A DNA stretch of 24,260 nt from a phage: the NCBI GenBank assembly GCA_018175035.1, contig GCA_018175035.1_4099.4, one strand, 5' to 3'. Positions 8,634-24,183 of this stretch are shown piece after piece. Both the position numbers and the translations under genes were made by a program. The notes beneath the pieces were generated by a model, which did not search any database, was not told where the DNA came from, and saw only the letters and a list, made by a program, of their open reading frames with translations. Each line of letters begins with the position of its first letter. Positions within the stretch are counted from its first letter, which is position 1.

Positions 8634-8644
8634 TTTATTTCCTT

Positions 8645-8675: not shown

Positions 8676-8687
8676 ACAAAGTAACGT

Positions 8688-8837
8688 TTAATCAGATTTA
8701 TTTTCGTAATCTGTAAAAACAGTCAGGATTGTTGCACATAGTGAATCAACTACTGATGCACGTGTGTTATCAAGGTCTTTAGCTAGTGCTTGAATCTCTT
8801 GAAGTTTTACTACTAAGTCGATTTTTTGATTACTCAT
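8688..8837 (-). CDS. small hypothetical protein (49 aa), not in the track
   Basis: Manual translation: MSNQKIDLVVKLQEIQALAKDLDNTRASVVDSLCATILTVFTDYENKSD; SD AGGAG 5 nt upstream; followed by the terminator. Confidence 0.5.
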   Translation of the reverse strand: MSNQKIDLVVKLQEIQALAKDLDNTRASVVDSLCATILTVFTDYENKSD

Positions 8838-8859
8838 TACTTCTCCTATTGGATGTTTT

Positions 8860-9150
8860 TTAGATATTAATTTTTATACCACTAAGGTCTAGAACTTTTT
8901 TATTAGATACTGTTTCTGATTCTAATTTAGTTTCTTTTACCTCAGTGTTAATATTTACGTCATCTTTGAGAATATCAGGGATAATACCATGTTGAATATC
9001 ATCGTACATAGAAACAACGGTTTCGGCACAAGATAACATTTCACGAACTTTGTACTGATAACCCTGTGGTAACTCATTGATGATTTCCATAATATCTAAT
9101 AATTTAGTTTGGACATCAATAAGAATTTTTCTTGATTTTTCTGGTTCCAT
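8860..9150 (-). CDS. hypothetical protein
   Basis: Track ORF, ATG start, TAATG overlap with the upstream gene. Confidence 0.7.
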   Translation of the reverse strand: MEPEKSRKILIDVQTKLLDIMEIINELPQGYQYKVREMLSCAETVVSMYDDIQHGIIPDILKDDVNINTEVKETKLESETVSNKKVLDLSGIKINI

Positions 9151-9656
9151 TACTCCAACTCCACAACATTACTTTTTTTGGATTTAATCACTGATGGTGG
9201 CTCATTAACGCTTGTTTGACCACGAAGTGATTTTTCCAACGCAATGATGCGTTTTAAAGTTTTTATTGATGGTCGCTTCTTCGTCAACTCAGCTTTTGCT
9301 TCTGAATAATATTTTCTTACATATCCATAGGCATAATATTTTGAACCAATGAAAATTTCAGCAACTACTGGATTTGAGTATTGTGTATCAATCCCATTCT
9401 GTTCTGTCTCTACAGTGTAAAATGAAATATTTGTATCACATGCTGAAATTTTAGCCACCAAAAGATTTGCATCGAACTTATCTAAAATTAGAGAAATTGT
9501 TTTTTCGGCATCAGCACTATATGGCATAGCAGACATTAAAAGTTGGAATGTCTTAAAGTACTTACTTCCACTAATCATGGTATTGAAAATCAATCCAATG
9601 GTGATTAATGCAAGTGTACCAATACACACAAACAAAAACCAATATTCAACACTCAT
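9150..9656 (-). CDS. hypothetical membrane protein (N-terminal hydrophobic helix)
   Basis: Track ORF, ATG start, SD AAGAGGA; N-terminal WFLFVCIGTLALITIGLIF. Confidence 0.7.
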   Translation of the reverse strand: MSVEYWFLFVCIGTLALITIGLIFNTMISGSKYFKTFQLLMSAMPYSADAEKTISLILDKFDANLLVAKISACDTNISFYTVETEQNGIDTQYSNPVVAEIFIGSKYYAYGYVRKYYSEAKAELTKKRPSIKTLKRIIALEKSLRGQTSVNEPPSVIKSKKSNVVELE

Positions 9657-9679
9657 TTATAAATCCTCTTACTTTATAT

Positions 9680-9710
9680 GATTAAAATGCCCCATCAAAA
9701 ATGATGAGGC
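9680..9710 (-). terminator. rho-independent terminator (8-bp stem with one G-U, U-rich tail)
   Basis: Minus strand: GCCUCAUC-AUUUUU-GAUGGGGC then AUUUUAAUC; downstream of the stop of gene 9722..9931. Confidence 0.55.
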
Positions 9711-9721
9711 GGTAAGATAAA

Positions 9722-9931
9722 TTACTTACGATTTGCTTTACGCAGTTCAGATAGTTCTTCTTGAAGACTTTTCTTCCATGCAATCAAGTGAGCAAAACGG
9801 ATTGGCCTTGCACCAGTACCGTGGAATACTGCTAGAGCTTCTTCTGCTTGATGAATCTGGAATTGAATATAGTTCACAGTGCGGTCGAAGTCGGTGATAT
9901 CTAGTACTTGTGCGTTAGTTTCTTTAGCCAT
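9722..9931 (-). CDS. hypothetical protein
   Basis: Track ORF, ATG start, SD AAAGGG. Confidence 0.7.
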   Translation of the reverse strand: MAKETNAQVLDITDFDRTVNYIQFQIHQAEEALAVFHGTGARPIRFAHLIAWKKSLQEELSELRKANRK

Positions 9932-9959
9932 TTTAATACCCTTTTATTTCTTTTTTATG

Positions 9960-9980
9960 AAAAACCCTCATCATTGAGGA
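9960..9980 (-). promoter_or_regulatory. 5'-UTR stem-loop (CCUCA-AUGA-UGAGG, then G-U5) about 30 nt downstream of the promoter
   Basis: Read directly; together with the promoter at 10015..10042 it forms a promoter-plus-stem-loop cassette. Confidence 0.45.
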
Positions 9981-10014
9981 ATGGTTTGCATTTTAATATC
10001 TGCCGATAACAAAC

Positions 10015-10042
10015 ATTATATCACAATATCTGTTCTTGTCCA
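10015..10042 (-). promoter_or_regulatory. sigma70-like promoter TGGACA-N16-TATAAT
   Basis: Minus strand: TTGGACA AGAACAGATATTGTGA TATAAT, just after the stop of gene 10047..10343. Confidence 0.55.
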
Positions 10043-10046
10043 ATTT

Positions 10047-10343
10047 TTAATTATTAGAAAGAACAATTTTTGAAACTGGTAAATCTGTATTATTTACACG
10101 TTGTTCATTATATCCATTCTGTACAAGAATGTCAATAACTTTAGACTTATCAATTGTAAATGATTCTAACATATCATATCGGTAATAACCAATAGTCTGA
10201 CTGAACTCATATTTTCCTGGCTGTTGACGACAACACGTATTTGTTTCAGCCATAATCTTATTGATTAGGTAATATGTTTCAGTACTATCAATATTTGGAA
10301 TATAGATCTTATCATCAAAATGAATTACTTCATGTTTATTCAT
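10047..10343 (-). CDS. hypothetical protein (start moved from GTG to the first ATG)
   Basis: Track ORF 10047..10406 starts at GTG and overlaps the upstream gene by 70 nt; the first ATG is at 10343. Confidence 0.55.
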   Translation of the reverse strand: MNKHEVIHFDDKIYIPNIDSTETYYLINKIMAETNTCCRQQPGKYEFSQTIGYYRYDMLESFTIDKSKVIDILVQNGYNEQRVNNTDLPVSKIVLSNN

Positions 10344-10605
10344 AGAGTGATTCAATCTCCGCTTTAAGAATGGAAATAATCTCTTTCTGAAGGCCAGTAA
10401 TTTCACTGTTCAAAGATGATAGTCGCTTCGATAATGCCATGAATTGCTTTGCATCTTCTTTAGAACGGTCATTTCGTACTTTATCAGAACTCCAGTTAGC
10501 ATATGATTGCTCATCTTTCCTGTTAAGGATATCCCAGTCTAAACGTACTAGTTTACGTTCTTTCTTCAGTTCGCTTAAGCGAGATTTCATTTCTTCTTTA
10601 GTCAT
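10336..10605 (-). CDS. hypothetical protein, predicted coiled coil
   Basis: Track ORF, ATG start, SD AAAGGAA; K/E/L-rich heptad-like sequence. Confidence 0.7.
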   Translation of the reverse strand: MTKEEMKSRLSELKKERKLVRLDWDILNRKDEQSYANWSSDKVRNDRSKEDAKQFMALSKRLSSLNSEITGLQKEIISILKAEIESLYE

Positions 10606-10895
10606 TAAATTGTTCCTTTCATGAAGTCTGGAATAACGATTACGATAGGAGGATTATACTCTACATAACCATTTTTTGTCAATAGACTTTTAATATCTGA
10701 AATCACATTATCATGCTGTTCAATATCTTTATCACAAAAGATTTCCAATTCTTTCTGAAACGGTTTTTTAACCGAGATGTTTTGAGTCAGTGTTTGGATT
10801 CTCTGTAACATATCAATTGGATCTGGACTGAACTCATTACCAACATAAAGAGTACCAGATGCATCTTTTTCTAGCAAGACTTCTAAAATTTTCAT
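10605..10895 (-). CDS. hypothetical protein
   Basis: Track ORF, ATG start, ATGA overlap with the upstream gene. Confidence 0.7.
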   Translation of the reverse strand: MKILEVLLEKDASGTLYVGNEFSPDPIDMLQRIQTLTQNISVKKPFQKELEIFCDKDIEQHDNVISDIKSLLTKNGYVEYNPPIVIVIPDFMKGTI

Positions 10896-11722
10896 TTCTT
10901 ATCCTTCAATTTACTAAAGTTTTCTCGTGTAAATCCAGGAACTGGAAAATATACATCACAGTCAACATCAGGATTAATAATTATCATGTCATTACATATT
11001 ATATCACGAATTTTACTACCGTCCACGATTTTTTGCATTAAATCATTCCATTTTTTACGAGAAACAACGAATGTACTAATTATACATAAATCATGTCCAC
11101 GTTTTGAAATATATCCTAATACTTCATTATCGTAAACAACACGTATGGTAACTTTTCCAATTGTTACCCCTCTTACTGGATTAATACTAGTATCTTCAAA
11201 AATTAATTCTAATTTAAGTTTACCATTTGAAATAAGTGATGAAGTATATTTAGAAACCATTTTATCAATTTCTTGAGTCAAATCATCTCTACCTAGATAT
11301 TCAAATACAGAATAAGTTAATTCGTCTGCACCTAACTGTTGGATAGTTGGAAGCTGGGCAACCATATCTAAAGATACAGGTTCGATATATATTCTTTCAA
11401 TATCAGACGATTGTATAAATAGACAACCATCAGGTGTCGTATCTCTAACAATTTCGGCATAATATGTATAAAGATAAAAAACATTAGACTCTGATGAGTC
11501 AGTTTCTACCCAAATCTCAGATTGTTTCATTTCATCTTTATGAAGAATTCGTTGAGTAAATCCTATGTAAAAACCAAGATATAAATCATCATCAGTTTCA
11601 AACGGATTAAACATCAAATACGGATATTTGTCAAGGTACTCATTGAACTTACGCTGCACATCTCTATCACAATCCATGATATACTTTCGGAATTCAGAAA
11701 TGATTATTTTTTCTAATGACAT
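10892..11722 (-). CDS. hypothetical protein (start moved from TTG to ATG)
   Basis: Track ORF starts at TTG at 11728; the ATG at 11722 is preceded by GAGGA plus 6 nt. Confidence 0.7.
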   Translation of the reverse strand: MSLEKIIISEFRKYIMDCDRDVQRKFNEYLDKYPYLMFNPFETDDDLYLGFYIGFTQRILHKDEMKQSEIWVETDSSESNVFYLYTYYAEIVRDTTPDGCLFIQSSDIERIYIEPVSLDMVAQLPTIQQLGADELTYSVFEYLGRDDLTQEIDKMVSKYTSSLISNGKLKLELIFEDTSINPVRGVTIGKVTIRVVYDNEVLGYISKRGHDLCIISTFVVSRKKWNDLMQKIVDGSKIRDIICNDMIIINPDVDCDVYFPVPGFTRENFSKLKDKK

Positions 11723-11724
11723 AA

Positions 11725-11922
11725 TCAATCCTCAAGATGCATGTAGTACATAAACATCGCCAACCATATAAAAAAGCCGAAACAACGAAGTAAAATATCA
11801 ATTGTTGGATCTGTCCCACCATTAACTTGGTAAACGATTACTGGGATTAAAGCAATAGTAAGAGACACAGCACATAAGATGAATGCAACAAACACCTCAA
11901 ACATAAACTTAATCGTTTCCAT
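11725..11922 (-). CDS. small hydrophobic (likely membrane) protein
   Basis: Track ORF, ATG start, SD GAAGGA; two hydrophobic segments. Confidence 0.65.
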   Translation of the reverse strand: METIKFMFEVFVAFILCAVSLTIALIPVIVYQVNGGTDPTIDILLRCFGFFIWLAMFMYYMHLED

Positions 11923-12481
11923 TATTATCCTTCAGTGTGTAGTGTAGTACATCTAAAAAGTTATACATTGATTCATTACGCATAACCTTGATTGTTAAAT
12001 TACGACAACCCAACATACGTTTGAGGCGACGCTTCACCGCAGTTAAATCATGTGTACTATTCGTATACAGACCATTAACCTGACCTGGAACAGTTGGCAC
12101 ATGAAGAATGTAATCATAATTCATTAGTAAGCGTTGATTATATTTCTTTAATGCTTGCTTGTATTCTGAAATATTTTCAAAGAATGTACAATAACGGTCG
12201 TAACGATTCATTTTATTCAAAATTGAAATACGAAAAGCGTTACCACTATTCCAATCATCTTCAGTTGGGTTTGGGTTGATATGTGCCATGTTAGCTGTAC
12301 TGTACCCACCACTTGTGAAAACTTCAGAATATCCATTCTCAAAAACATACAATGTTGCTTTGTGGCCTCTGAATTCTTTACGGTACTTTGACAGTACTTG
12401 GATGTGATTACGCTTGGACTTGTACATTTCGTAACCTTCATAATCTGAACTGAATTCACAAATTTTATCAACACCAGCCAT
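11909..12481 (-). CDS. hypothetical protein
   Basis: Track ORF, ATG start, SD GAGGA plus 8 nt. Confidence 0.7.
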   Translation of the reverse strand: MAGVDKICEFSSDYEGYEMYKSKRNHIQVLSKYRKEFRGHKATLYVFENGYSEVFTSGGYSTANMAHINPNPTEDDWNSGNAFRISILNKMNRYDRYCTFFENISEYKQALKKYNQRLLMNYDYILHVPTVPGQVNGLYTNSTHDLTAVKRRLKRMLGCRNLTIKVMRNESMYNFLDVLHYTLKDNNGND

Positions 12482-12513
12482 TTCGTATATCCTCGTTTAA
12501 TTAATATAGGAGT

Positions 12514-12542
12514 ATTATACATACTCCATTTTCATGTGTCAA
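12514..12542 (-). promoter_or_regulatory. consensus sigma70 promoter TTGACA-N17-TATAAT; the -10 lies in a 7-bp stem (GGAGTAT/ATACTCC)
   Basis: Minus strand: TTGACA CATGAAAATGGAGTATG TATAAT ACTCC; the TGA inside TTGACA is the stop codon of the small ORF 12539..12682. Confidence 0.6.
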
Positions 12543-12682
12543 GCTTTATAATACGGAAGACTTTTTACTAAAGATTCAGACGTATTATTTTTTACCCATG
12601 TACTACCGTTGTCATTAGATACGTATCCAGTACCATTAATAAATTTACGCATAATACCAGTAAAAATATTAGTATACACCAT
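12539..12682 (-). CDS. small hypothetical protein (47 aa), not in the track
   Basis: Manual translation: MVYTNIFTGIMRKFINGTGYVSNDNGSTWVKNNTSESLVKSLPYYKA; TAATG overlap with the upstream gene; AGGA 9 nt upstream. Confidence 0.4.
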   Translation of the reverse strand: MVYTNIFTGIMRKFINGTGYVSNDNGSTWVKNNTSESLVKSLPYYKA

Positions 12683-12852
12683 TACTCAGTATCCTTTGGT
12701 TTAGAATGTAAACCATACTTTTCATCATAACGATCATAGGTAGTACCATTAGTACTAGCTTTGATGCTTTCAGTACGATTGATTGGTTCAATCTTAACAC
12801 CACGATAACCAATCTCTTCTTTAAATTGTTCCCATGATTCACGTAAACTCAT
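12682..12852 (-). CDS. hypothetical protein (start moved from GTG to ATG)
   Basis: Track ORF starts at GTG at 12879; the ATG at 12852 (MSLRESW...) is preceded by AAAGGGG plus 5 nt. Confidence 0.55.
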   Translation of the reverse strand: MSLRESWEQFKEEIGYRGVKIEPINRTESIKASTNGTTYDRYDEKYGLHSKPKDTE

Positions 12853-12866
12853 TTTAGCCCCTTTTG

Positions 12867-13010
12867 TTATTTCATACACTCACGTAGGTCAATCTTTTCT
12901 ACTGACCCACCGAGCACTAGATAGTGAAAATTAGAATCTTTGTTTGCCATATTCAAAAGATCTGCTTTCTGTTGAAGCGTAAAGCGTGAAGTACTGTTAC
13001 GTACTGGCAT
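12867..13010 (-). CDS. small hypothetical protein (47 aa), not in the track
   Basis: Manual translation: MPVRNSTSRFTLQQKADLLNMANKDSNFHYLVLGGSVEKIDLRECMK; SD AGGAG plus 5 nt. Confidence 0.5.
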   Translation of the reverse strand: MPVRNSTSRFTLQQKADLLNMANKDSNFHYLVLGGSVEKIDLRECMK

Positions 13011-13012
13011 AG

Positions 13013-13456
13013 TTACTCCTTAAAGTAGATATCACGAATTTGTTTAATCATCTCTAACTCTTGAAGTCCTATCATACCGAAGTTTTCTTGCACTGTCAAC
13101 TGTTGGAAGTACATTTCCTCTAAATTATTATAAGGAATATCCACTAATGATAAAGGAACACTTTCACCACGGTATAGCAGATCTTCAACGAAAAGTTTTA
13201 AAATCATGATAGAAAATGAATCTTTTTGGATATGAAATTTGTAAAATGTTTGGTTAGTACTGAACATTGTATTTGATGGATTGAAACCCATTTCAACAAA
13301 TACTGTATCTTTATCATTATGTGTGACATATGTACATCTTGAATTCGCAAGAACTTTAGATTTTGGGAAATAAAAATCACCCATCAACTTCTGTCGTTTC
13401 CAATCCTCGTATACAACTGGATGCTTAACCTTCTTCAATTGGTGCAGTACTGTCAT
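13013..13456 (-). CDS. hypothetical protein, FQxST-motif family
   Basis: Track ORF, ATG start; LEEMYFQQLTVQEN. Confidence 0.7.
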   Translation of the reverse strand: MTVLHQLKKVKHPVVYEDWKRQKLMGDFYFPKSKVLANSRCTYVTHNDKDTVFVEMGFNPSNTMFSTNQTFYKFHIQKDSFSIMILKLFVEDLLYRGESVPLSLVDIPYNNLEEMYFQQLTVQENFGMIGLQELEMIKQIRDIYFKE

Positions 13457-13836
13457 AGTTTTTTCCAGTCCAATGAATCGAAATCGATTTGCTCAGGATT
13501 ATCAACAGCGACAACTCGTGCATTATGAAGAGTTTCAAAGTAGCCGTTCCACGGTGTTCGTAATGGAACTGTCACATCGCCAACTTTAACCAAGAATGAA
13601 TATTCTGGTGATATTGGGTCAAACCACTCTTTTTGTTTAGCATTTTCAACGATAGTTTCGTGTTCTTTAGTATAGCAATTATCTTGCTTCATATAAAACA
13701 CCCAATGCTCTTTTAGGCACTGTAAAGCAGCAACTGCTTCCTCTTTAGAAGACCATTGAATATCAATTGTATTAAGAACGTCATAACAATTTTCAGTGTC
13801 CCCTGTAGTGTAATGTACTTCAATGCTGTATTTCAT
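13453..13836 (-). CDS. hypothetical protein
   Basis: Track ORF, ATG start, ATGA coupling. Confidence 0.7.
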   Translation of the reverse strand: MKYSIEVHYTTGDTENCYDVLNTIDIQWSSKEEAVAALQCLKEHWVFYMKQDNCYTKEHETIVENAKQKEWFDPISPEYSFLVKVGDVTVPLRTPWNGYFETLHNARVVAVDNPEQIDFDSLDWKKL

Positions 13837-14291
13837 TAATCATCGCCTTTTAGTAATTTACAAATTTCAATCATATGATAATAACATGTATTCCAAAATT
13901 GTCCATTAGTACTTCCAACATCATGCACAGTACTTTGTTGGAAAACATATTCATCGTTGAACATCATTTTAATATCATCAATGTAAAATTCTGGTTTTGA
14001 ATCATTATTGTATTCAATACTCGTTTCACCATCTGGATCAAGTGAAATTGATGATATGTCGTGAATTCCTCTCGGATTTGTTGGATAAATTCTCAACGTA
14101 AGAGGATAGAAGTCTGGATCGGTTTCATAAGTATATTCGATTATGTAATAACCATCACCAGTAATTGATTGATATTTAAATGTAGTTTCAATTGAATTTG
14201 AGATGTTAAATCCCAGTTTCTTTATCTCATGTAGATGTGATAATATTTTATGTAAAGATCCTAAAACATGAATCAAATTATCAATTTTCAT
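13836..14291 (-). CDS. hypothetical protein, FQxST-motif family
   Basis: Track ORF, ATG start; NDEYVFQQSTVHDV. Confidence 0.7.
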   Translation of the reverse strand: MKIDNLIHVLGSLHKILSHLHEIKKLGFNISNSIETTFKYQSITGDGYYIIEYTYETDPDFYPLTLRIYPTNPRGIHDISSISLDPDGETSIEYNNDSKPEFYIDDIKMMFNDEYVFQQSTVHDVGSTNGQFWNTCYYHMIEICKLLKGDD

Positions 14292-14803
14292 TTACGATCC
14301 TTTGAAAAGTTCAGTTTAAAAGTTTTACCAAATTCCATTGTAGCTTTACCCAGATTGTTAATATTTTCTTTCAACATTTCTTGCATCTTCCTAATACTTT
14401 CAATCCAGGCTTCTTCTTCGATACGAAGAATTGGTCGCAATCGTTCCTGAATATCGTTAAAACGTGTATTGAGTTCAACCAATGATTCATATGTGAAATC
14501 TTTCATATCGATAATAGTACTTCTTTGAAAGAATTCTTCTTCAGACAAATTACTTAAAATGATTTTATCACGACCAATAGATAATGTCAATTCATCATCT
14601 TTATTTTTTTTAATTACAATACTGATAGGTGTTTTTAATGTAATGCAAATATCATGATTATTAAATGTTTCAGTTTGGTTTGACATTCTGAATTGAAGTT
14701 TCCCAGATAAAGCATGTACTGGTGATGGTTGCTTTTTACCAGTAATAACATCTTCCCATGAATCGAGAATATTATTAATAATTTTAACATAAGGAATTGG
14801 CAT
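14288..14803 (-). CDS. hypothetical protein, FQxST-motif family (start moved from TTG to ATG)
   Basis: Track ORF starts at TTG at 14830; the ATG at 14803 is preceded by AGGTG plus 5 nt; SEEEFFQRSTIIDM. Confidence 0.7.
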   Translation of the reverse strand: MPIPYVKIINNILDSWEDVITGKKQPSPVHALSGKLQFRMSNQTETFNNHDICITLKTPISIVIKKNKDDELTLSIGRDKIILSNLSEEEFFQRSTIIDMKDFTYESLVELNTRFNDIQERLRPILRIEEEAWIESIRKMQEMLKENINNLGKATMEFGKTFKLNFSKDRK

Positions 14804-14816
14804 ATATGCACCTATG

Positions 14817-14839
14817 AAAAATCCACGCAATGCGTGGAT
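14817..14839 (-). terminator. rho-independent terminator-like hairpin (GC-rich 8-bp stem plus U4)
   Basis: Minus strand: AUCCACGCA-U-UGCGUGGAU then UUUU; between the stop of 14846..15376 and the SD of 14288..14803. Confidence 0.5.
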
Positions 14840-14845
14840 TTGTAA

Positions 14846-15376
14846 TTATTCAAGTATAGTAATTTCAATTAAACGAATTTCGATAAACTCGTTTTCAGTT
14901 TCCCATGACGTGCCAAATTTCTTTTCAAGTTCAGATTTCACATCACTTTTAAATTTTCCCATAGTATTAGGAATAATTTGTTTGGTTAATTTGTCATAAC
15001 CACAATAAAACATAGGTTTCTCCCTTCGAGATATTAGCTGAACAAAATCTTTTGGATATGCAGGTATGTTATGCATCACTTCATGAATACACTCAGTACT
15101 TGAATCTTGTACTTTGTACATTACATTAAGTTTACCTCTGAAATTTGCGGTCATATCAACAATAGTTCCTTTACCCGATTTAAGTAAAGTTCCATTCTTT
15201 GAATGAGAGCAATAAAATACCTCATCACCAATATTAGGATAATACAAATTAAATTCTAATTCAGATTTTACAGCCAGCCGTTTGAAACTTTCTGTACGTT
15301 TTATATAAGTTTGGTGTTTGTTTATGTTCAAAAGAATATATCTCGTAGTAAGTGTGATATAACTGGCATAGTCCAT
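14846..15376 (-). CDS. hypothetical protein (start overlaps the methyltransferase 3' end by 49 nt)
   Basis: Track ORF with ATG start; no alternative internal ATG nearby. Confidence 0.55.
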   Translation of the reverse strand: MDYASYITLTTRYILLNINKHQTYIKRTESFKRLAVKSELEFNLYYPNIGDEVFYCSHSKNGTLLKSGKGTIVDMTANFRGKLNVMYKVQDSSTECIHEVMHNIPAYPKDFVQLISRREKPMFYCGYDKLTKQIIPNTMGKFKSDVKSELEKKFGTSWETENEFIEIRLIEITILE

Positions 15377-17217: not shown

Positions 17218-17245
17218 ATAAAATCCTTTTTATATTGTTAAGGTA

Positions 17246-17263
17246 CTATAATATATTATAGCA
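17246..17263 (-). promoter_or_regulatory. Extended -10 promoter element (TGC-TATAAT) inside a 16-bp perfect palindrome CTATAATATATTATAG, upstream of the methyltransferase
   Basis: Palindrome read directly at 17246-17261; minus strand reads TGCTATAAT; the -35 is weak; about 30 nt upstream of the methyltransferase ATG. Confidence 0.45.
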
Positions 17264-17269
17264 TCTTAT

Positions 17270-17521
17270 TTAGAAATCTTCCAAACTTTTTTCATCACAC
17301 CATCGTGATGTACAGATGATTGCAGATGCCAGAATTGAAGCACTTGCACGTCCTCCACCAAGTAAGTACTGGCTAATTACACCAATCATATTGAACACTT
17401 TATCATACTCGGTTAGTTGTTCAAAACCTTTCTTCCAATGCTGATATTCTTCTTCTGTGACATTAAACTCACCATCAAGTTCCTTTAAAATCTTTTTAAG
17501 CACAGCACTATGTTCACTCAT
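17270..17521 (-). CDS. hypothetical protein (start uncertain; the track start at 17560 is GTG)
   Basis: Several in-frame ATGs; the ATG at 17521 (MSEHSAVLKK...) is preceded by GGAG plus 6 nt; an acidic 25-codon upstream ORF (17514..17591, MSEKPKEPLDRDDDFYDERYGDDDE) with a strong SD overlaps it. Confidence 0.5.
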   Translation of the reverse strand: MSEHSAVLKKILKELDGEFNVTEEEYQHWKKGFEQLTEYDKVFNMIGVISQYLLGGGRASASILASAIICTSRWCDEKSLEDF

Positions 17522-17599
17522 CATCATCTCCATATCGTTCGTCATAAAAATCATCATCACGATCTAATGGTTCTTTTGGCTTTTCAGACATATATTTCC

Positions 17600-17860
17600 T
17601 CACATGGTAAAGGTATTATCACCATCCATATCTTCATCAGTTGCTTCAGCTAATGTCTTGATTGTAAGTAATCCACGCTTCACGTACAACATGAAGACCT
17701 TTTCATAATTACCAAACATAATCTCAGGTGACATGTAATTCTCTGTTACAATGACGATTGGACGGCCCTGTGAAAGCATACGAAACATAGTACGATATTT
17801 GTCAAATGTACGAAATTCATCCATGTTCATCATGTGGCGTTTACGAACTACTTTAGTCAT
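17600..17860 (-). CDS. hypothetical protein
   Basis: Track ORF, ATG start, SD AAAGGTAA. Confidence 0.7.
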   Translation of the reverse strand: MTKVVRKRHMMNMDEFRTFDKYRTMFRMLSQGRPIVIVTENYMSPEIMFGNYEKVFMLYVKRGLLTIKTLAEATDEDMDGDNTFTM

Positions 17861-17874
17861 CTTATTACCTTTAG

Positions 17875-18315
17875 TTAATTGAACTCTACTTCTGGATAAT
17901 GATTATAGAACATCTCACGAACTGCGTCAAGATGTTCTTGAAATTGTTTTATATCTTCTAATGATGGTGCATCAATAACAGTACTAAGTTGAAACAACGA
18001 TTCTTCTGTGTTATATAGTGACATATCAAATGAGTTATTGTTGTCATCAGTTATGATATTATCACAAATTTCGTAAGTGTCAATACAAACATCATCAAGT
18101 GTTGTATTATCATATACAGTGTATACGAATACAAAAATAAAAGAAGAATGTTCTTTACCATAACGCGGTGGGTCATATGTCACATAGCATTTGTGGTCAA
18201 ATGTATCGAGTTCCATAGACACCACCCCAGCTTCACGATATTCATTAGTTTCACTGGTAAGATCCGGTATTGATGTTATCGAAAGTAAGTGGAGAAATTT
18301 ACTTGGATTTAGCAT
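17875..18315 (-). CDS. hypothetical protein, FQxST-motif family
   Basis: Track ORF, ATG start; TEESLFQLSTVIDA. Confidence 0.7.
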   Translation of the reverse strand: MLNPSKFLHLLSITSIPDLTSETNEYREAGVVSMELDTFDHKCYVTYDPPRYGKEHSSFIFVFVYTVYDNTTLDDVCIDTYEICDNIITDDNNNSFDMSLYNTEESLFQLSTVIDAPSLEDIKQFQEHLDAVREMFYNHYPEVEFN

Positions 18316-18764
18316 TTCACCACCATTGGATTTTGCGACTGTATATTAAAAAGGGATAATACAAAAGTACTCAATTTTTCGAAACAATCTACTAATACAT
18401 TTAACTCATCATAACTAACACCAATTTCACGAATAAGCGATTGTTGAAAGAATCCTTCTTCGGTTAACGTTAAACTACTAACCTCAGTTATGTTATAATA
18501 ACTGTGGGATGTTGTGGTTGATATTAGTTGTATTGCAATCGTATCTGATGTTGTGTTGTACAGATATAAATATTTTGTTTTTCTTTCCAATGGATCTATA
18601 CATGAAAGATCGATCATGTCATAGGTTTTTCCAATAAAAATATTACAATCATCTGACAATTCACAACAAATGCGTATATGTTCTTTCGGGTCATGAACAC
18701 GTTGTGTGTCAAATTCACATGACATTGCAATTTCAAAATGATTTTTTATTTCGTCAACATTCAT
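18309..18764 (-). CDS. hypothetical protein, FQxST-motif family (start moved from GTG to ATG)
   Basis: Track ORF starts at GTG at 18770; ATG at 18764 with GGTGGGTG upstream; TEEGFFQQSLIREI. Confidence 0.7.
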   Translation of the reverse strand: MNVDEIKNHFEIAMSCEFDTQRVHDPKEHIRICCELSDDCNIFIGKTYDMIDLSCIDPLERKTKYLYLYNTTSDTIAIQLISTTTSHSYYNITEVSSLTLTEEGFFQQSLIREIGVSYDELNVLVDCFEKLSTFVLSLFNIQSQNPMVVKC

Positions 18765-19138
18765 CTGCACCCACCATTAATTCTTATATTTGTATAGTTT
18801 AATGCTTTTTTAATAATACCAATTTCTGTAATTCCTATTACATTTTTCTCAATCAATGACAATTGGAATAGTTCCTCTTCGGAAATATCAATACTGTGGA
18901 TTCTTGTACAATAATCGTTGAAGTCATATACATATCGTATTGTATAGTCGTTTATAGAAACTGATACAATTGCAATCCCATCATGGATGTAAGTTAGTTC
19001 ATTTGAGTATCTATTAAAAATTAACCTATCTGGTGAACCTATTGGTAGTTGAAATGTATTTCTAGTATCTTGAACAATAACAAAATCATCATCTATATTT
19101 CTACTCAGAACACCCAAAATATCATATATAGTAGTCAT
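18761..19138 (-). CDS. hypothetical protein, FQxST-motif family
   Basis: Track ORF, ATG start; SEEELFQLSLIEKN. Confidence 0.7.
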   Translation of the reverse strand: MTTIYDILGVLSRNIDDDFVIVQDTRNTFQLPIGSPDRLIFNRYSNELTYIHDGIAIVSVSINDYTIRYVYDFNDYCTRIHSIDISEEELFQLSLIEKNVIGITEIGIIKKALNYTNIRINGGCR

Positions 19139-19139
19139 G

Positions 19140-19544
19140 TTATTCTTTACCTTCAGCAGTTCTGATAATTTTCATAACTTCTCTGGATAGTGCGTATATT
19201 TTTTTATAGTACTCAAATGTAACTGAACCAAAATCATTAATAGTACTAGCCATGAAGAACGATTCTTCTGTATATAGTTCATTTGACAAAGCAACCAGTT
19301 CTTGGTGAAATTTTGCGTCCTTCCAATAACGAAATTCAAAAACAAATTGTCCGTCATGACCGACTCTACAACATTCAGAACGATCACTGTCTACACAGCT
19401 AAACACAATATCCCTTTCAGAGTCGTACCAGATATTTCCAATATTTGTTTCAATAACAGCATAATCAATTTTTTTAGAATTTGGAATTAAACCTTTTTTC
19501 ACCAGCACTAAACTGGTATTATCAATATCTAGTAAACTTACCAT
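19140..19544 (-). CDS. hypothetical protein, FQxST-motif family
   Basis: Track ORF, ATG start, SD GGGGAA; TEESFFMASTINDF. Confidence 0.7.
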   Translation of the reverse strand: MVSLLDIDNTSLVLVKKGLIPNSKKIDYAVIETNIGNIWYDSERDIVFSCVDSDRSECCRVGHDGQFVFEFRYWKDAKFHQELVALSNELYTEESFFMASTINDFGSVTFEYYKKIYALSREVMKIIRTAEGKE

Positions 19545-19545
19545 A

Positions 19546-19956
19546 TCAATTCCCCATTACTAAAGTGTTTTTAATCTCCAACAATTCACTATACATATTC
19601 TTCAATTGTAATATATCTTCAAAAGTAATACCACCAAGATCATCAACTAATGAACGTTGGAATAAAGATTCACTTGTTTGTAATGTATCTAAATCGGTGA
19701 TTTTTAATAAAGAACTTGGATTAAGTGTTTCGACTAGTAGTATGTTTTTGTATGGTACATATGTGATCTTGATGTTCTTTTTATAATTAATCTTATAAAA
19801 TCGCATAATTGACGATTCATCACTTAGTTGGATAATTGGGTCGTCTTGATCATTAGACCACCATACAGTACTAGTCATATGATTGACGTGGTGGTTCAAT
19901 TCTGATATGTCCAAATCTAAAAAATATTTTAGTTCATTGTGTAAATCTAAACTCAT
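19546..19956 (-). CDS. hypothetical protein, FQxST-motif family
   Basis: Track ORF, ATG start, SD GAGGA plus 7 nt; SESLFQRSLVDDL. Confidence 0.7.
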   Translation of the reverse strand: MSLDLHNELKYFLDLDISELNHHVNHMTSTVWWSNDQDDPIIQLSDESSIMRFYKINYKKNIKITYVPYKNILLVETLNPSSLLKITDLDTLQTSESLFQRSLVDDLGGITFEDILQLKNMYSELLEIKNTLVMGN

Positions 19957-19986
19957 AAATTTATCCTCAATGCAGCATCATCATGT

Positions 19987-20015
19987 ATTGTAGGATAAAC
20001 CCACAATAATGTCAA
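19987..20015 (-). promoter_or_regulatory. sigma70-like promoter TTGACA-N17-TACAAT
   Basis: Minus strand: TTGACA TTATTGTGGGTTTATCC TACAAT; the TGA within TTGACA is the stop codon of gene 20012..20407; upstream of gene 19546..19956. Confidence 0.55.
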
Positions 20016-20407
20016 GATGTAAAATAATTATACCAGTAATATAGTTCTTTTAATTCTTCAGTACTGAACAATACTTCTTCTATTGTAGATTGTTGAAAGT
20101 GATATTCATCATTTAGATACATAGAAATATTACTATATACTTTCCTATTGTATTGACATAAAAAAGAAGTTTTTTGATTAATGTATTCCGTAAATGTTAA
20201 TTTATCTAACTCAATATCGAATGATAATTTAATAATATGACTATTATCATTTACATACATTAGTTTCTTTGAAAAATGATCAATTGTAATATATTCTTTA
20301 TGAGAGAACTGAAATATATTATTAAATTTATTACCATTTGTGCTTCTAAATTTTTCAAGGTAATAAGAAAGTGGTTTAATTATTGAAGTTCCAATATTGT
20401 TCTTCAT
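20012..20407 (-). CDS. hypothetical protein, FQxST-motif family
   Basis: Track ORF, ATG start, SD GAGGA; NDEYHFQQSTIEEV. Confidence 0.7.
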   Translation of the reverse strand: MKNNIGTSIIKPLSYYLEKFRSTNGNKFNNIFQFSHKEYITIDHFSKKLMYVNDNSHIIKLSFDIELDKLTFTEYINQKTSFLCQYNRKVYSNISMYLNDEYHFQQSTIEEVLFSTEELKELYYWYNYFTS

Positions 20408-20424
20408 ATATCCTCAATTTTAGA

Positions 20425-20451
20425 TAAGAAAAATGCCCCGATCTTCGGGGC
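20425..20451 (-). terminator. rho-independent terminator (GC-rich 6-bp stem GCCCCG/CGGGGC, U-rich tail)
   Basis: Minus strand: GCCCCGAAGAUCGGGGC then AUUUUUCU; between gene 20568..21119 and gene 20012..20407. Confidence 0.65.
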
Positions 20452-20567
20452 AGTACTAAAATGATTTTGTACCAAAAGGGGAATAAGAACAAAATGAAAA
20501 TATAATAACGCATCATTATTATGTAAGGGAGGAAAGTAACATGATATGTTAACCATTTCTGGTATAT

Positions 20568-21119
20568 TTATTTATCATTTAATTCTTTAAGTTGGGTTTG
20601 TATATCTTTAGTTATATTTCGAATTTTCTTAAAGCAATAAACACTATCGTCCAATTCGATTTTAAGTTCATGTGTAAATGCATACAGAAGTTCAGCAAAT
20701 ACTAAATCTTGACGCATCCAGTTTCCATCTTTATATAAAGTCATTACACAATATGGGCATTCACTATTAGAAGTTTGCTTTCCAATAAAAACACTTTGAA
20801 TTGATTCATGCTTAAAGCCAATAAAACTTTCATTTATTTTTTTAATTTCAGTACTGATATCGAATTTAGCACTGGTGTTGATTGCAAAAATTTTATTTCC
20901 ACTTTCATCAGTATTGATGTTGAGTTCAATATCACTACCTAGTTTACGTACTGCTAGAGTATAAAGAAGTAATTCATACATGTCGTAACTTGTTACATTA
21001 CCATTTGGTGCAATTACATCAACACTAACACCGTGCATTTTTACTTCTGTATTAAATCCATCTTTATCAGAAAGAAAATCAGTGATTTGCTTTGTAAGGA
21101 TTTTAATTTGGTCTATCAT
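20568..21119 (-). CDS. hypothetical protein
   Basis: Track ORF, ATG start, SD AAGGAAA. Confidence 0.7.
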   Translation of the reverse strand: MIDQIKILTKQITDFLSDKDGFNTEVKMHGVSVDVIAPNGNVTSYDMYELLLYTLAVRKLGSDIELNINTDESGNKIFAINTSAKFDISTEIKKINESFIGFKHESIQSVFIGKQTSNSECPYCVMTLYKDGNWMRQDLVFAELLYAFTHELKIELDDSVYCFKKIRNITKDIQTQLKELNDK

Positions 21120-21140
21120 ATTTCATTTCCTTATGTGATA

Positions 21141-21164
21141 AAAGCCTCCATGATGGAGGCTTTT
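21141..21164 (-). terminator. rho-independent terminator-like hairpin (AGCCUCCA-UGA-UGGAGGCU, flanked by A/U tracts)
   Basis: 8-10 bp perfect stem read directly; between gene 21173..21601 and the SD of gene 20568..21119. Confidence 0.55.
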
Positions 21165-21172
21165 ATATTTAC

Positions 21173-21601
21173 TTAGAGAGATTCTTCGTATTCAGCAACA
21201 ATCTCAACCATTTCATTAATGAACTTGATGTGAGAATGTGTCACTGTACGGAAGTCGTAAACAAGTGACTGTTGGAAAAATACATCTTCATCAAGAGAAC
21301 CATCAAAGTTCAAATCAATGTTTTCATCGTCATTGCTTGGTGCAACTTTAATATTCAGAAGATTTTCATCAACTGCAAGTTTTACAACACAACCCAGTGC
21401 AATGGCAAGAACATATGCTGGTTTCTTAGCTTTTTCATTACGGAATGGTGCACGTAGAGCACAAAAAGTACTGCTAATCTCATCATTTGGTTCTTTGTAT
21501 TTAACATTGACCATTAGTTCTTCGATTTTGACGCTCTCAATAACACGACCAGTTTCTGGAGCGAAGAAAGAATGTTCACGGATAGTTTGTTCGATATTCA
21601 T
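21173..21601 (-). CDS. hypothetical protein, FQxST-motif family
   Basis: Track ORF, ATG start, SD AAGGAA; DEDVFFQQSLVYDF. Confidence 0.7.
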   Translation of the reverse strand: MNIEQTIREHSFFAPETGRVIESVKIEELMVNVKYKEPNDEISSTFCALRAPFRNEKAKKPAYVLAIALGCVVKLAVDENLLNIKVAPSNDDENIDLNFDGSLDEDVFFQQSLVYDFRTVTHSHIKFINEMVEIVAEYEESL

Positions 21602-21604
21602 ATA

Positions 21605-21799
21605 TTATTCCTTATTTAGATTGCTAAAAATACGAAGATTGCGGTTTGCTTTAAACTGTTTCAAATCACCAAATCTATCATCAACGATGAAAGTTGCTGA
21701 TTTCTTTGACTGACATATTGTACAAATCAACATACCTTGTATTGTATACTCAGTTGAGCAATTTGTACAGTACTTTTTTTCATAAAGTTCAGTACTCAT
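21605..21799 (-). CDS. small Cys-rich (zinc-ribbon-like) protein
   Basis: Track ORF, ATG start; CxxC ... CxxC (YCTNCS ... ICTICQ). Confidence 0.6.
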   Translation of the reverse strand: MSTELYEKKYCTNCSTEYTIQGMLICTICQSKKSATFIVDDRFGDLKQFKANRNLRIFSNLNKE

Positions 21800-22131
21800 A
21801 AAACCTTCACATCAGTACGTTTTTCTCTTTGTTCTTTTTTAACCTCATCAGTTCTAGTATCTTCTAATTGTAACACAACTTCTTTTAGAATGTCAACATC
21901 AATTGTTGCTTCTACATATTGATAGTCGTTTACACCAAAAACATACTTTACTGCAACCCATACACGGTTATACCATTTTAAAAAAGGATTTAAACGCATA
22001 CTTATCAGACATTGACCAAGTTTATCATCTCCATATTCCTCTGTCAAGTCAAATTGTGCAATGTGAACGCAATGCTCCATTTTATCGCCACAAGAACAAC
22101 GTAAAATATACTCTTTACTATCTTCACTCAT
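21796..22131 (-). CDS. hypothetical protein
   Basis: Track ORF, ATG start, ATGA coupling on both sides. Confidence 0.65.
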   Translation of the reverse strand: MSEDSKEYILRCSCGDKMEHCVHIAQFDLTEEYGDDKLGQCLISMRLNPFLKWYNRVWVAVKYVFGVNDYQYVEATIDVDILKEVVLQLEDTRTDEVKKEQREKRTDVKVL

Positions 22132-22550
22132 ACTGGATAAGCCTTTAAAAATTGTTTAAGAACTCCAAACTTAGATGAATCGTAATCGTATTGATAGTTA
22201 AGCTCTCGCTTATCATTCATACGATACACCATATGAAAATTTGGATAACCAATTCTAACAGGTTTTTTAGGATTAGCAAGTAAAATTGCCCATTCTTTTA
22301 CAGGAAATACGTTTTCAGACAGCATTTTGATATTTGTTTCAAAATACTTCATGGCTTGCTTTCCGTGCTTGTAATCTTCTTCACTAATCTCTTGACAATC
22401 AATTCTATGTGTTTCGGTATCTAACACCCATTGTTGATCTTCGGTATATAAATCAATTACATCATCAATAGTATAACTATCAGGTAAATCATAAAATACC
22501 CAATGAGATAAACCAGAACTTACACTAATTCGAATTTTAAAGAACTTCAT
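22128..22550 (-). CDS. hypothetical protein
   Basis: Track ORF, ATG start. Confidence 0.7.
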   Translation of the reverse strand: MKFFKIRISVSSGLSHWVFYDLPDSYTIDDVIDLYTEDQQWVLDTETHRIDCQEISEEDYKHGKQAMKYFETNIKMLSENVFPVKEWAILLANPKKPVRIGYPNFHMVYRMNDKRELNYQYDYDSSKFGVLKQFLKAYPV

Positions 22551-22708
22551 TCTTTATCACCTTTTACATAATTATAACACACGACACAGTGAATTACAAG
22601 AAGAATTATTTCCACAATATTAAGAGACAATACATGACTCTGCGGTGTGAAAAGTGCCAATAACAACATTATAGCAGGTATTGTGAATATTTTCCAAGTT
22701 TTTTTCAT
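22547..22708 (-). CDS. small membrane protein (start moved to the internal ATG with SD)
   Basis: Track ORF 22547..22852 overlaps gene 22710..22940 by 143 nt in another frame; the internal ATG at 22708 (MKKTWKIFTIPAIMLLLALF...) is preceded by AAGGA plus 5 nt. Confidence 0.5.
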   Translation of the reverse strand: MKKTWKIFTIPAIMLLLALFTPQSHVLSLNIVEIILLVIHCVVCYNYVKGDKE

Positions 22709-22709
22709 T

Positions 22710-22940
22710 TTATTCCTTTGTATATGCATATGGTAAAAATAAAACCTCTGCATTAGGAATGCATTGTGCCAATCCTTCAACAATAGATTTGTTTTTATTA
22801 CATTGCCAAACTTTAGTAATTTTATGTCTAAATACTTTTTTATCAACGACAATCCAGTACATGTCCATTTTAACAGTACTGTTATCAGATGGTGTTAGTA
22901 AAGTATCGATGTCATATGTATCAAAGATTTTGTCGTTCAT
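22710..22940 (-). CDS. hypothetical protein
   Basis: Track ORF, ATG start, SD AGGAG plus 5 nt. Confidence 0.65.
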   Translation of the reverse strand: MNDKIFDTYDIDTLLTPSDNSTVKMDMYWIVVDKKVFRHKITKVWQCNKNKSIVEGLAQCIPNAEVLFLPYAYTKE

Positions 22941-23202
22941 ATAATCTCCTAATAAAATATTCTCGATTCTCTCTTATATACCCAGATACACAGTTAGTTG
23001 TGGCTTGGTTAGTGAATGAAATCTCACTATTGGACACGCCATTTGCATCACACAAAGGACATATTCCCATGTACTTGGGGGTCGGGTAGGTGTCCAATTT
23101 GTATTTTCCATTACATACCATGTACTGCTGTGGCAATACATCTAATATTATTTCATATTCTTCATCAAACACCTTGAAGCATACCCAACATTTACCCATC
23201 AT
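22921..23202 (-). CDS. small Cys-rich zinc-binding-like protein
   Basis: Track ORF, ATG start; CWVCF ... CPLCD. Confidence 0.6.
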   Translation of the reverse strand: MMGKCWVCFKVFDEEYEIILDVLPQQYMVCNGKYKLDTYPTPKYMGICPLCDANGVSNSEISFTNQATTNCVSGYIRENREYFIRRLYERQNL

Positions 23203-23683
23203 AGTTTTCCTTTAACACAGTTCTTATATATTCGAATGTTTTAACAAACCAATCATGTTCGTCGGATACATCTACAACTTTACCACCATATACATAGTAA
23301 TGGTAAAAAGGCAACTTGCTTTTTCTTAATCTTTCGGCTAACTCTGGATTTTGAATTATTTTAGCACAAATAGCATCTTGAATAATAGAAATACAATCAT
23401 CCGTCATTTCAATTCGATCATGCATATATTTGTTAGCGGCTGCTTTTGCTGCTGCACCAGATACTTTTCTAAGGTCATCATGTTTTTGCCCAGTTAAAAA
23501 CCAAAAGTAAAATGTTTCAACTGAAGGGAACCAACCATATGGTTCAAGTGTGAAGCTATGCGAAGAAAAGTTAGATAGATCTCTACCTAACTTCGTTCTG
23601 GCTTTACTATAAATGTTAATATGTCGGTATCCATCATCAGTAGGGTCAATGAAGTTAAATGACTCTTCTGGGAATTCAAACAT
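23192..23683 (-). CDS. NADAR (YbiA/DUF1768-like) domain protein, candidate ADP-ribosyl hydrolase
   Basis: Pattern I.IYS...LSNFS...F.L..YGWFPSVETFYFWFLTGQK...RKVSGAAAKAAANK resembles the NADAR/YbiA signature (FSNF ... W.[ST].E..[YF] ... R.VS....A) as I recall it; ATG start. Assignment is by motif recall, not by search. Confidence 0.5.
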   Translation of the reverse strand: MFEFPEESFNFIDPTDDGYRHINIYSKARTKLGRDLSNFSSHSFTLEPYGWFPSVETFYFWFLTGQKHDDLRKVSGAAAKAAANKYMHDRIEMTDDCISIIQDAICAKIIQNPELAERLRKSKLPFYHYYVYGGKVVDVSDEHDWFVKTFEYIRTVLKENYDG

Positions 23684-23685
23684 AA

Positions 23686-24039
23686 TTATTCTTCTTCTCC
23701 TGAAGGTGTTCCACGTAGTTTATCAAAATCAACCCAAATACCATGCTGGTTTTTAAATCGACATTTCTCATAGTACCAACTATAGTCTGTTTCAACACCT
23801 TGTGAAATAGAACGCACACTACAATCATACATATTATATAAATGTTCCCTGACAATATATGTATTAATCAGTACAACGAATAATACAATAATACCACAGA
23901 TTTTAGGATGGTCCATAATCAAGTCAAGTACTGAACTAGTTTCAGAACTATCAATCTTACTTCTACAAATAGCAACAATTTTAAGAACAGCGAATGATAC
24001 CAGTAATGAAATTACAATAACACTTAAATAAATTAGCAT
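23686..24039 (-). CDS. hypothetical membrane protein (two hydrophobic segments)
   Basis: Track ORF, ATG start, SD GGAG plus 8 nt. Confidence 0.65.
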   Translation of the reverse strand: MLIYLSVIVISLLVSFAVLKIVAICRSKIDSSETSSVLDLIMDHPKICGIIVLFVVLINTYIVREHLYNMYDCSVRSISQGVETDYSWYYEKCRFKNQHGIWVDFDKLRGTPSGEEE

Positions 24040-24042
24040 AAA

Positions 24043-24183
24043 TTACACTCCTACACCAAAACGTAAAATAATATTATTAACAAACACTAAATCAAAAGGT
24101 GACTTTGGTTCAGATACTGAGTACTGAAATGATTCTGCTGCGAAATTTTCTCTATTATACCATGTTTCAGAATTTATTAGCAT
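24043..24183 (-). CDS. small hypothetical protein (46 aa), not in the track
   Basis: Manual translation: MLINSETWYNRENFAAESFQYSVSEPKSPFDLVFVNNIILRFGVGV; GGTGA upstream of the ATG; stop 3 nt before the next ATG. Confidence 0.35.
   Translation of the reverse strand: MLINSETWYNRENFAAESFQYSVSEPKSPFDLVFVNNIILRFGVGV

Follow-up and report, generated by a model that had tools for sequence, protein, structure and literature searches.

The window analysed here, 24,260 nucleotides (nt) of phage DNA (contig GCA_018175035.1_4099.4), comes from an Asteriusvirus jumbo coliphage of the 121Q/PBECO4/phAPEC6/G17 type and contains a 25-codon gene, here called E. Over at least five jumbo-phage lineages no neighbouring protein is as well conserved as the product of E, which is homologous to the tail of a larger protein. 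We infer that E marks a short linear motif with a conserved partner, and this is the only finding reported here that is of wider interest. E is one of six short open reading frames (ORFs) that we refer to as A, B, X, C, D and E (Table 1). All of these except X had been listed in an earlier reading of the same DNA from its letters alone (the sequence-only reading), and its coordinates and translations for A, B, C, D and E agree with ours. In the account that we favour, to which we give a probability of about 0.6, A, B, X, C, E and an additional frame at 22547-22708 are genes, D is the end of the homologue of 121Q gp71, and E is a homologue of the tail of the PHROG 24806 proteins that would act in trans as a binding motif.

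The only match of region 8000-24260 to RaK2-like Klebsiella phages in a megablast search was a stretch of 47 nt inside E. In RaK2 this stretch lies between gp343 (the homologue of gp89, the gene directly upstream of E in the window) and the next gene, and it reads ...KEPLDRDDDFYDERYGESEE up to the stop codon. With the gp89 homologue serving as anchor, and by protein searches and DNA patterns, we gathered the E locus from over 20 phages and uncultured contigs. Comparison of 18 E loci yielded 17 distinct versions of the 48-nt core, all encoding variants of PLDRDDD[FY]xDERYG followed by an acidic end, a core that is near-invariant over at least five jumbo-phage lineages. In the stretch from Pro to Gly, 12 of the 14 residues are invariant and 12 of the 14 codons have synonymous variants (e.g. 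CGN/AGA for Arg and CTN/TTR for Leu). Variable sites of the core fall on codon positions 1/2/3 as 6/3/12 in the frame of E and as 3/12/6 in the frame of gp90, the gene that follows in the window. The ratio of non-synonymous to synonymous differences (pN/pS) was 0.07-0.16 for E among the Asteriusvirus relatives. The core was conserved far more strongly than the neighbouring proteins, with 14-16 of 16 residues identical in RaK2, Munch, Hallingskeid and EJP2, compared to 39-45% identity for gp89 in the same phages. The near-invariance of the residues in spite of 17 nucleotide versions, together with the variation at third positions, shows that E is selected at the amino-acid level as a peptide. 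An RNA element at this position was ruled out by the synonymous variation, an ordinary fold (z = -1.05) and the absence of an Rfam match there.

The gene model of E is simple: GAGGA, a Shine-Dalgarno (SD) sequence, precedes the ATG by 6 nt, and the annotated gp125c of phAPEC6 has exactly the same 78-nt extent. E is called as a product of 29 amino acids (aa) from an upstream GTG in BAU.Micro_ELP-22, SD-1_S14, BF17 and RCIP0023 and is not annotated in 121Q, G17, UE-S1, ph0011, A4 and JNE01; its omission from most records is explained by its 78 nt lying below the usual minima of gene callers. In all RaK2-like jumbo phages the gene conserved next to the tail motif, on its upstream side, is the gp89 homologue. 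Downstream, the ATG of gp90 lies inside the last codons of E (G-ATG-AGT-GA, an overlap of 8 nt), and at every locus that we read the ATG of the next gene was located between 17 nt before and 1 nt after the stop of E. A DNA methyltransferase gene is found two genes away.

The position of E raises the question whether it is merely an N-terminal extension of gp90 (96 aa from a GTG at 17560) rather than a separate gene. Upstream of the E stop the frame of gp90 does stay open over 16 codons, and 121Q and UE-S1 have the long gp90 annotated. Over E, however, this frame varies non-conservatively (IVMMIFMTNDMEMMMS, TVMMITTTNVMVIKMS and IVMTISMMNVMVILMF), with the variable sites mostly at second codon positions, and its only conserved start is the last ATG (17521), two codons before the stop of E, which is the start used in G17, ph0011, phAPEC6 and ELP-22. 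We therefore find the extension hardly credible, and the gp90 start at GTG 17560 in 121Q and UE-S1 is an over-extension across E (17522-17560, minus strand). A tie of E to gp90 was likewise rejected: RaK2 and Munch lack gp90 though both carry E, and other genes follow E there. In EJP2 (our locus L019, about 1755-1900) and in locus L020 (about 2850-2990) a conserved frame, ...YYNAWSYAIEFCRKYDICTSTKKWKPWEKKFFF..., was observed between the gp89 homologue and E. EJP02_361 is annotated in another frame, a sign that a small gene has been mis-called there; the window does not have it.

The larger protein to which E is related is found in Mimasvirus (GAP32, CBB and XbC2) and Eneladusvirus (Yen9-04 and SNUABM_47), where a gene of about 120 aa, with a product starting with MSWNNRV, directly follows the gp89 homologue. 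The products end in ...VLDKDDAYMDEKYDEED (GAP32), ...VLDKDDAYMDEKYGEED (CBB), ...VIDPDDDYMDEKYGD (XbC2), ...VLDRDDAYLDEKYGDE (Yen9-04) and ...VLDPDDAYLDEKYGDNDD (SNUABM_47), each directly before the stop codon, and the corresponding protein in two uncultured jumbo phages ends in ...LDRDDDYMDERYGDEDA. The consensus of these fused tails is [LI]D[RKP]DD[DA][YF]xDE[RK]YG plus an acidic end. A hidden Markov model (HMM) that was built from the free-standing E peptides alone and searched against 12,560 ORFs recovered the fused tails of our loci L032 (E-value 2e-9) and L034 (1e-6), and those of CBB (7e-5), Yen9-04 (3e-4), XbC2 (1e-3) and SNUABM_47 (5e-3). The body of the protein (PHROG 24806; about 100 aa; MSWNNRV...LKxxLExMLEAV...) was found in only 18 phage records, from Mimasvirus, Eneladusvirus and Erwinia phage Kaldavass, and is absent from the window and from the Asteriusvirus, RaK2-like, Munch-like and Hallingskeid records; no genome with the free-standing peptide has it. 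The body had no match in Pfam or PDB, and a profile of body plus tail was uninformative against PDB. A HicB-like resemblance of the body was considered and dropped, as no search lent it support.

The same syntenic slot, the matches of the peptide HMM, the complementary distribution and the shared C-terminal motif thus show homology between E and the tail of the PHROG 24806 proteins. Like GAP32_388, CBB gp582, Yen9-04 g400 and XbC2_399, E occupies the slot after a gp89 homologue and carries an acidic-aromatic C-terminal motif; unlike E, these proteins have the N-terminal body, and their tails are less strictly conserved. E is accordingly a homologue of the tail only and not as a member of the family as it is defined, since the N-terminal body of about 100 aa is absent. 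Proteins of 64 aa and 53 aa, preceded by good SDs, represent further architectures, in which the motif stands at the C-terminus behind a differing N-terminal part. The motif was always at the C-terminal end of the product, and no fusion of it to a recognisable domain was seen. It occurred only in jumbo-phage DNA: a strict DNA pattern had no match in 185,579 species genomes of bacteria and archaea, and pattern scans of metagenomes and bacterial genomes returned the same three architectures plus chance matches, with nothing in bacteria. The E-family profile gave no informative match and no fusion to a known domain when compared with PDB and with 1.84 billion representative proteins. As far as we searched (literature and libraries), the relation between E and the PHROG 24806 tail has apparently not been described. 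We assumed that loss of the body, and not fusion of a tail to a body, was the direction of change; Kaldavass and Hallingskeid were considered as a close pair that might bear on this direction and were discarded, as they are not closely related at this locus.

We propose a trans-acting role for E: its acidic-aromatic peptide would be a short linear binding motif that docks on a conserved phage or host partner. On its own it might do what the tail does in the full-length PHROG 24806 protein, or it might compete for the same site. Translation of E is probably coupled to that of the next gene, because the last codons of E carry the SD and the ATG of that gene, and such coupling would be a secondary effect of dense packing. 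A candidate partner is the basic protein of the gp89 family encoded just upstream, which always precedes E in the RaK2-like group. Distant gp89 homologues in phages of about 145 kb that have no tail motif nearby speak against this choice, and a tie of E to gp89 outside the RaK2-like group was rejected on the same observation. More tentatively still, and with the odds in our view somewhat against it, E could be a 'tail-only gene', in which a protein of about 120 aa has been cut down to a docking motif of 20 residues in several jumbo-phage lineages while engaging the same conserved partner. If so, an autonomous, strongly selected peptide of 21-25 residues would be a minimal effector or a decoy, with gp89 or a host factor as candidate partner.

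Several observations weigh against the account that we favour. In RaK2-like phages the tail ORF lacks a start codon beyond the end of the preceding gene: in RaK2 (positions 2985-3075 of our locus L004, minus strand), where an SD is likewise missing there, in-frame ATGs occur only within the 3' end of gp343 and are in the +1 frame. The tail of GAP32 reached an E-value of only 0.25 with the peptide HMM and the tail of Kaldavass is degraded, so that the motif appears not to be equally constrained when fused. No segment of a host protein resembling E was found, the strict DNA pattern being the only search made, and no structural or family match (Pfam, NCBIfam, PADLOC, PDB) supplies a functional assignment for any of the short proteins. 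Finally, the constant overlap with the next start and the N-proximal sequence rich in Asp, Glu and Pro (D/E/P-rich) also fit a role in cis.

Such a role would make E a leader ORF whose D/E/P-rich nascent chain destabilises or stalls the ribosome, either by intrinsic ribosome destabilisation (IRD) of the MgtL type or by a MifM-like acidic arrest, and which would thereby control the number of ribosomes that arrive at the stop codon and start again on the overlapping gene downstream. E resembles MgtL-type leaders and IRD sequences in being a very short ORF, D/E/P-rich near its N-terminus and placed directly before another gene. Its composition is that of an IRD sequence (MSEKPKEPLDRDDD..., 12 of 25 residues being D or E, with Pro as residues 5 and 8), the complete ORF does not reach the length of the ribosome exit tunnel, at all loci the last codons of E contain or adjoin the SD and ATG of the gene downstream, and a gene for a PTH2 peptidyl-tRNA hydrolase is found a few genes upstream in relatives. 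According to one paper, IRD risk is highest for N-terminal DE/P-rich sequences and responds to Mg2+, and a nascent chain that fills the tunnel suppresses IRD (bioRxiv 10.1101/2021.02.02.429294). Unlike in MgtL-type leaders, the motif of E is also conserved deep in longer proteins, at residues 45-64 of the 64-aa form and at about residues 100-120 of the PHROG 24806 proteins, and is there far from the N-proximal position that IRD requires. The non-acidic residues (P, L, R, F/Y, R, Y and G) are as invariant as the acidic ones, and there is no attenuator RNA structure at E (z = -1.05). The gene after E varies as well, being of the gp90 family in the window, in Hallingskeid and in several contigs, and of the EE.FFQ family or others in RaK2, Munch and EJP2, and overlapping starts are the norm throughout this genome. 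Taken with the homology to the C-terminal tail of a larger protein, these points render a cis-acting leader unlikely, and the description of E as an upstream ORF in the regulatory sense, given in the sequence-only reading, is unsupported on present evidence.

It could also be argued that a PHROG 24806 gene is decaying here and that E is a leftover pseudogene fragment without a function of its own, as the genome lacks the body and retains only some 20 homologous codons. This we consider very improbable: most lineages provide E with an SD and an ATG of its own, the motif is better conserved free than fused, and the substitution pattern (pN/pS of 0.07-0.16 and near-invariance over 17 nucleotide versions and at least five lineages) contradicts decay.

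Two known peptides offer a comparison for the trans-acting motif that we prefer. T4 Stp, a 26-residue phage peptide acting on a host restriction enzyme, is similar to E in its size of about 25 residues and in the function in trans proposed for E, which moreover lies near a DNA methyltransferase gene; the two differ in that there is no sequence similarity and E is derived from, or shared with, the tail of a larger protein. The acidic tip DDDIPF of the single-stranded DNA-binding protein SSB of Escherichia coli is a docking peptide connected by a linker to a small globular body. E and the PHROG 24806 tail share with it the short acidic-aromatic motif at the C-terminus, whereas the motif itself differs and lacks a terminal aromatic residue, and the PHROG 24806 body has no detected oligonucleotide-binding (OB) fold or SSB similarity.

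The assignment of the other short frames depended on more than their length, which is uninformative in DNA so rich in A+T: 47 ATG-initiated ORFs of 25-59 codons occur on the antisense strand of 8000-24260. An SD-like motif precedes only 2 of these 47, compared to 5 of the 38 ORFs of that size on the gene strand, and these five are exactly A, B, X, C and E. The homologous region was taken from 121Q, G17, UE-S1, TH47, ph0011, CMSTMSU, A4 and JNE01, and ORFs were placed by local tblastn. The start, stop and frame of A, B, X, C and E were kept in relatives at 78-98% DNA identity, apart from individual absences. The pN/pS values were 0.0-0.27, with one exception that involves few substitutions (A versus TH47). 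At the amino-acid level X and E were each 84% identical to their counterparts in JNE01, the most remote relative, C 77%, B 72% and A 63%, and the differences concentrate on third codon positions (at positions 1/2/3 versus JNE01: B 9/10/25, C 9/4/22 and E 3/1/13).

The SD or coupling, the intact frames, the low pN/pS and, for A, B, X and C, the matches to PHROG families establish that A, B, X, C and E are, like 22547-22708, real protein-coding genes. The conservation of reading frames in relatives, which had been put forward as the check on the five ORFs of the sequence-only reading, thus turned out positive for A, B, C and E, which are intact down to about 78% DNA identity, show the third-position bias and have a ribosome-binding site or coupling; D is only the end of a gene. 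The list was also incomplete, as X and 22547-22708 are real genes of less than 60 codons too, and these genes are missing from the ORF track only through its length cut-off. None of them is new to annotation, each being present as a 'hypothetical protein' in at least one GenBank relative, and a literature search found no paper on these short ORFs.

As a negative control we used the ORF annotated as gp82 in 121Q, in which stops and frameshifts occur in UE-S1, ph0011, JNE01 and CMSTMSU. Since its frame is broken in relatives and an intrinsic terminator lies inside it, this ORF is probably spurious and not a gene. The combination of an SD with frame conservation therefore cleanly separates real from spurious short ORFs in this genome, and leads to three corrections of annotation: the over-extended gp90 start in 121Q and UE-S1, the probably spurious gp82 of 121Q, and the omission of E from most records.

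D had been described as a small ORF with a good ribosome-binding site. Its frame has no stop codon up to the end of the window at 24260, and the translation runs on as ...GNLNAYSINSSSNVPLHSVTIGDKKMLINSE..., which matches the C-terminal part of 121Q gp71. D corresponds to the last 46 residues of that 190-aa protein; the Met taken as its start is Ile or Leu in UE-S1, ph0011, TH47 and G17, and a weak GGTGA is the only candidate ribosome-binding site. D is therefore not a small ORF.

The products of 121Q gp109, gp99, gp98, gp97 and gp76 are 98-100% identical to those of the window and are encoded at the same positions; almost all records carry annotations for the first four (A, B, X and C, respectively). 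A, B, X and C all belong to existing phage protein families of the PHROG function class 'unknown', with significant full-length profile matches (E-values of 4e-32 for A with PHROG 22175, 1.7e-9 for B with PHROG 2381, 6.5e-22 and 6e-15 for X with PHROG 6110 and 5441, and 1.8e-33 for C with PHROG 26722), and none of them matched a Pfam or NCBIfam family. A and C are confined to Asteriusvirus.

The start of A is preceded at 6 nt by AGGAG. The gene closes its operon, and a hairpin with a T-run follows, at a position where G17 carries an annotated terminator. A is annotated in 121Q, G17 and UE-S1 and is intact in UE-S1, TH47, A4 and JNE01 (63-98% amino-acid identity). A possible paralogy of A to the neighbouring gp108 was dismissed, as BLASTP gave no match. 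C has AAGGAG at 5 nt from its ATG, with the SD overlapping the stop of the upstream gene, and is present in all relatives (77-100% amino-acid identity, pN/pS of 0.02-0.27). The start of B overlaps the stop of X (TAATG), with AGGA upstream, and pN/pS of B was 0-0.22 versus the relatives. Since ph0011 lacks A and A4 lacks B, both are dispensable accessories. The family of B (phi92 gp213) was found in 234 phage records, mainly of phi92/rV5-like phages. B is not a BNR/Asp-box protein, for which we took SxDxGxTW above the Pfam gathering threshold, usually in several repeats, as the criterion: it has a single SNDNGSTW, and PF02012 scored 14.3 bits versus a cut-off of 27. The C-terminal core of X, SIKASTNGTTYDRYDxK[YF]GLH, is about 85% identical in T5-like phages (e.g. 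Eps7 AGC_0080) and some T4-like phages (e.g. Merlin gp155), in 289 records. The AlphaFold2 models of B (predicted local distance difference test, pLDDT, 51) and X (pLDDT 60, with the conserved core unstructured) were too poor to be used.

A segment of X, TYDRYDEKYG, resembles the [FY]xDE[KR]YG of E and of the PHROG 24806 tail. X orthologues were the best matches of the E peptide HMM outside the family, but with E-values of 4-8 these were not significant, and the Glu of the segment is not conserved in the T5-like and T4-like homologues of X. The gene at 22547-22708 is hidden inside a 101-aa TTG ORF in the ORF list.

The sequence-only reading had further suggested that small proteins such as these are host-takeover or anti-defence factors. 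As applied to A, B, X and C, the suggestion is guesswork based on context, possible in our view and rather doubtful. The early-type promoters, the small size, the patchy presence (A missing in ph0011, B in A4) and the DNA methyltransferase neighbourhood are suggestive of such a role, as is the spread of the B and X families over unrelated virulent enterobacterial phages (B in phi92/rV5-like phages, X in T5-like and T4-like phages), which is expected of modules that target a shared host. On the other hand, A, B, X and C match no characterised anti-defence or takeover protein in PADLOC, Pfam or NCBIfam, and the models of B and X, as said, give no help. A, B, X, C, gp89, gp90 and GAP32_388 had no PADLOC match, and hence none to a known anti-defence or defence family.

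In the megablast search with 8000-24260 the nearest relatives of the window were 97-98% identical, and more remote Asteriusvirus clades were found at about 90%, 85% and 78% DNA identity; the 33 phage records that cover at least 80% of the region are all Asteriusvirus. The G+C content of the window is about 32%, all plausible genes are on the minus strand, and the region is dense with genes, with overlapping starts usual throughout the genome. Three perfect sigma-70 consensus promoters (12/12 matches; TTGACA, a spacer of 17-18 nt, TATAAT) and six 11/12 matches were found, exclusively on the gene strand; the count of promoter-like sites in total was no higher than in shuffled controls. Intrinsic terminators sit between the short operons, and hypothetical genes are in large excess. 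With the gene-strand-only promoters, these features make the region look like an early or accessory block, in line with what had been supposed from the sequence alone.

Table 1. Positions of the short reading frames and other features in the window
Feature	Position	Strand	Remarks
A	8688-8837	-	49 aa, acidic, helix-prone; 121Q gp109; PHROG 22175
B	12539-12682	-	47 aa, basic; 121Q gp99; PHROG 2381; phi92 gp213 family
X	12682-12852	-	56 aa; 121Q gp98; PHROG 6110/5441
C	12867-13010	-	47 aa, basic; 121Q gp97; PHROG 26722
D	24043-24183	-	part of the frame in the next row
3' end of 121Q gp71 homologue	24043-24260	-	frame of D, cut by the window edge; 190 aa in 121Q
E	17514-17591	-	25-aa acidic micro-gene, MSEKPKEPLDRDDDFYDERYGDDDE; phAPEC6 gp125c; GAGGA SD
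gp89 homologue	17600-17860	-	86 aa, basic N-terminus; PHROG 4868
gp90 homologue, short form	17270-17521	-	83 aa; PHROG 27090
Predicted membrane protein gene	22547-22708	-	53 aa; 121Q gp76; 49-100% aa identity in all relatives
Negative control, 121Q gp82 / ELP22_0484 ORF	20404-20556	-	spans strong intrinsic terminator 20452-20434
Terminator-like hairpin	8648-8671	-	ACCCAGT-caagt-ACTGGGT plus T-run; adjoins 3' side of A
Sigma-70 promoter	12514-12542	-	12/12 consensus; TTGACA-17-TATAAT; directly after B
Sigma-70 promoter	10653-10682	-	12/12 consensus
Sigma-70 promoter	10107-10135	-	12/12 consensus
EE.[FY]FQ-family members	3702-4148, 4551-4904, 7484-8032, 8241-8633, 13013-13456	-	shared motif
EE.[FY]FQ-family members	13836-14291, 14288-14830, 17875-18315, 18309-18770, 18761-19138	-	shared motif
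EE.[FY]FQ-family members	19140-19544, 19546-19956, 20012-20407, 21173-21601	-	shared motif

Some other features of the window were observed. The 14 listed members of a large paralogous family (117-182 aa) share a motif like EE.[FY]FQ[QLR]S[TL][VI] in the C-terminal third, and the family also occurs in Munch_395, EJP2_362 and uncultured contigs; the motif presumably resembles the site of the tobacco etch virus (TEV) type of protease (ExxYFQ-S/G). Six small genes (54-66 aa; 4977-6911, minus strand), interleaved with tRNA genes, have MTHEEW at or near the N-terminus of their products. They are annotated as coding sequences of 165 nt in A4 and JNE01, and the first copy had no Pfam match. A full-length group I intron (3173-3487, minus strand; RF00028 in Rfam, 99 bits) lies among the six tRNA genes (734-6449), adjoined by an ORF (2404-3108, minus strand, 234 aa) with an H-N-H-like sequence and no Pfam match. 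The gene for the C5 DNA cytosine methyltransferase (15328-17217, minus strand) is split by an intein, with Pfam DNA_methylase matched in three stretches together with Hint_2, LAGLIDADG_3 and Intein_splicing. It is uninterrupted (861 nt) in 121Q, G17 and phAPEC6, and the long form was found in UE-S1, ph0011, A4 and JNE01 and probably also, unannotated, in TH47.

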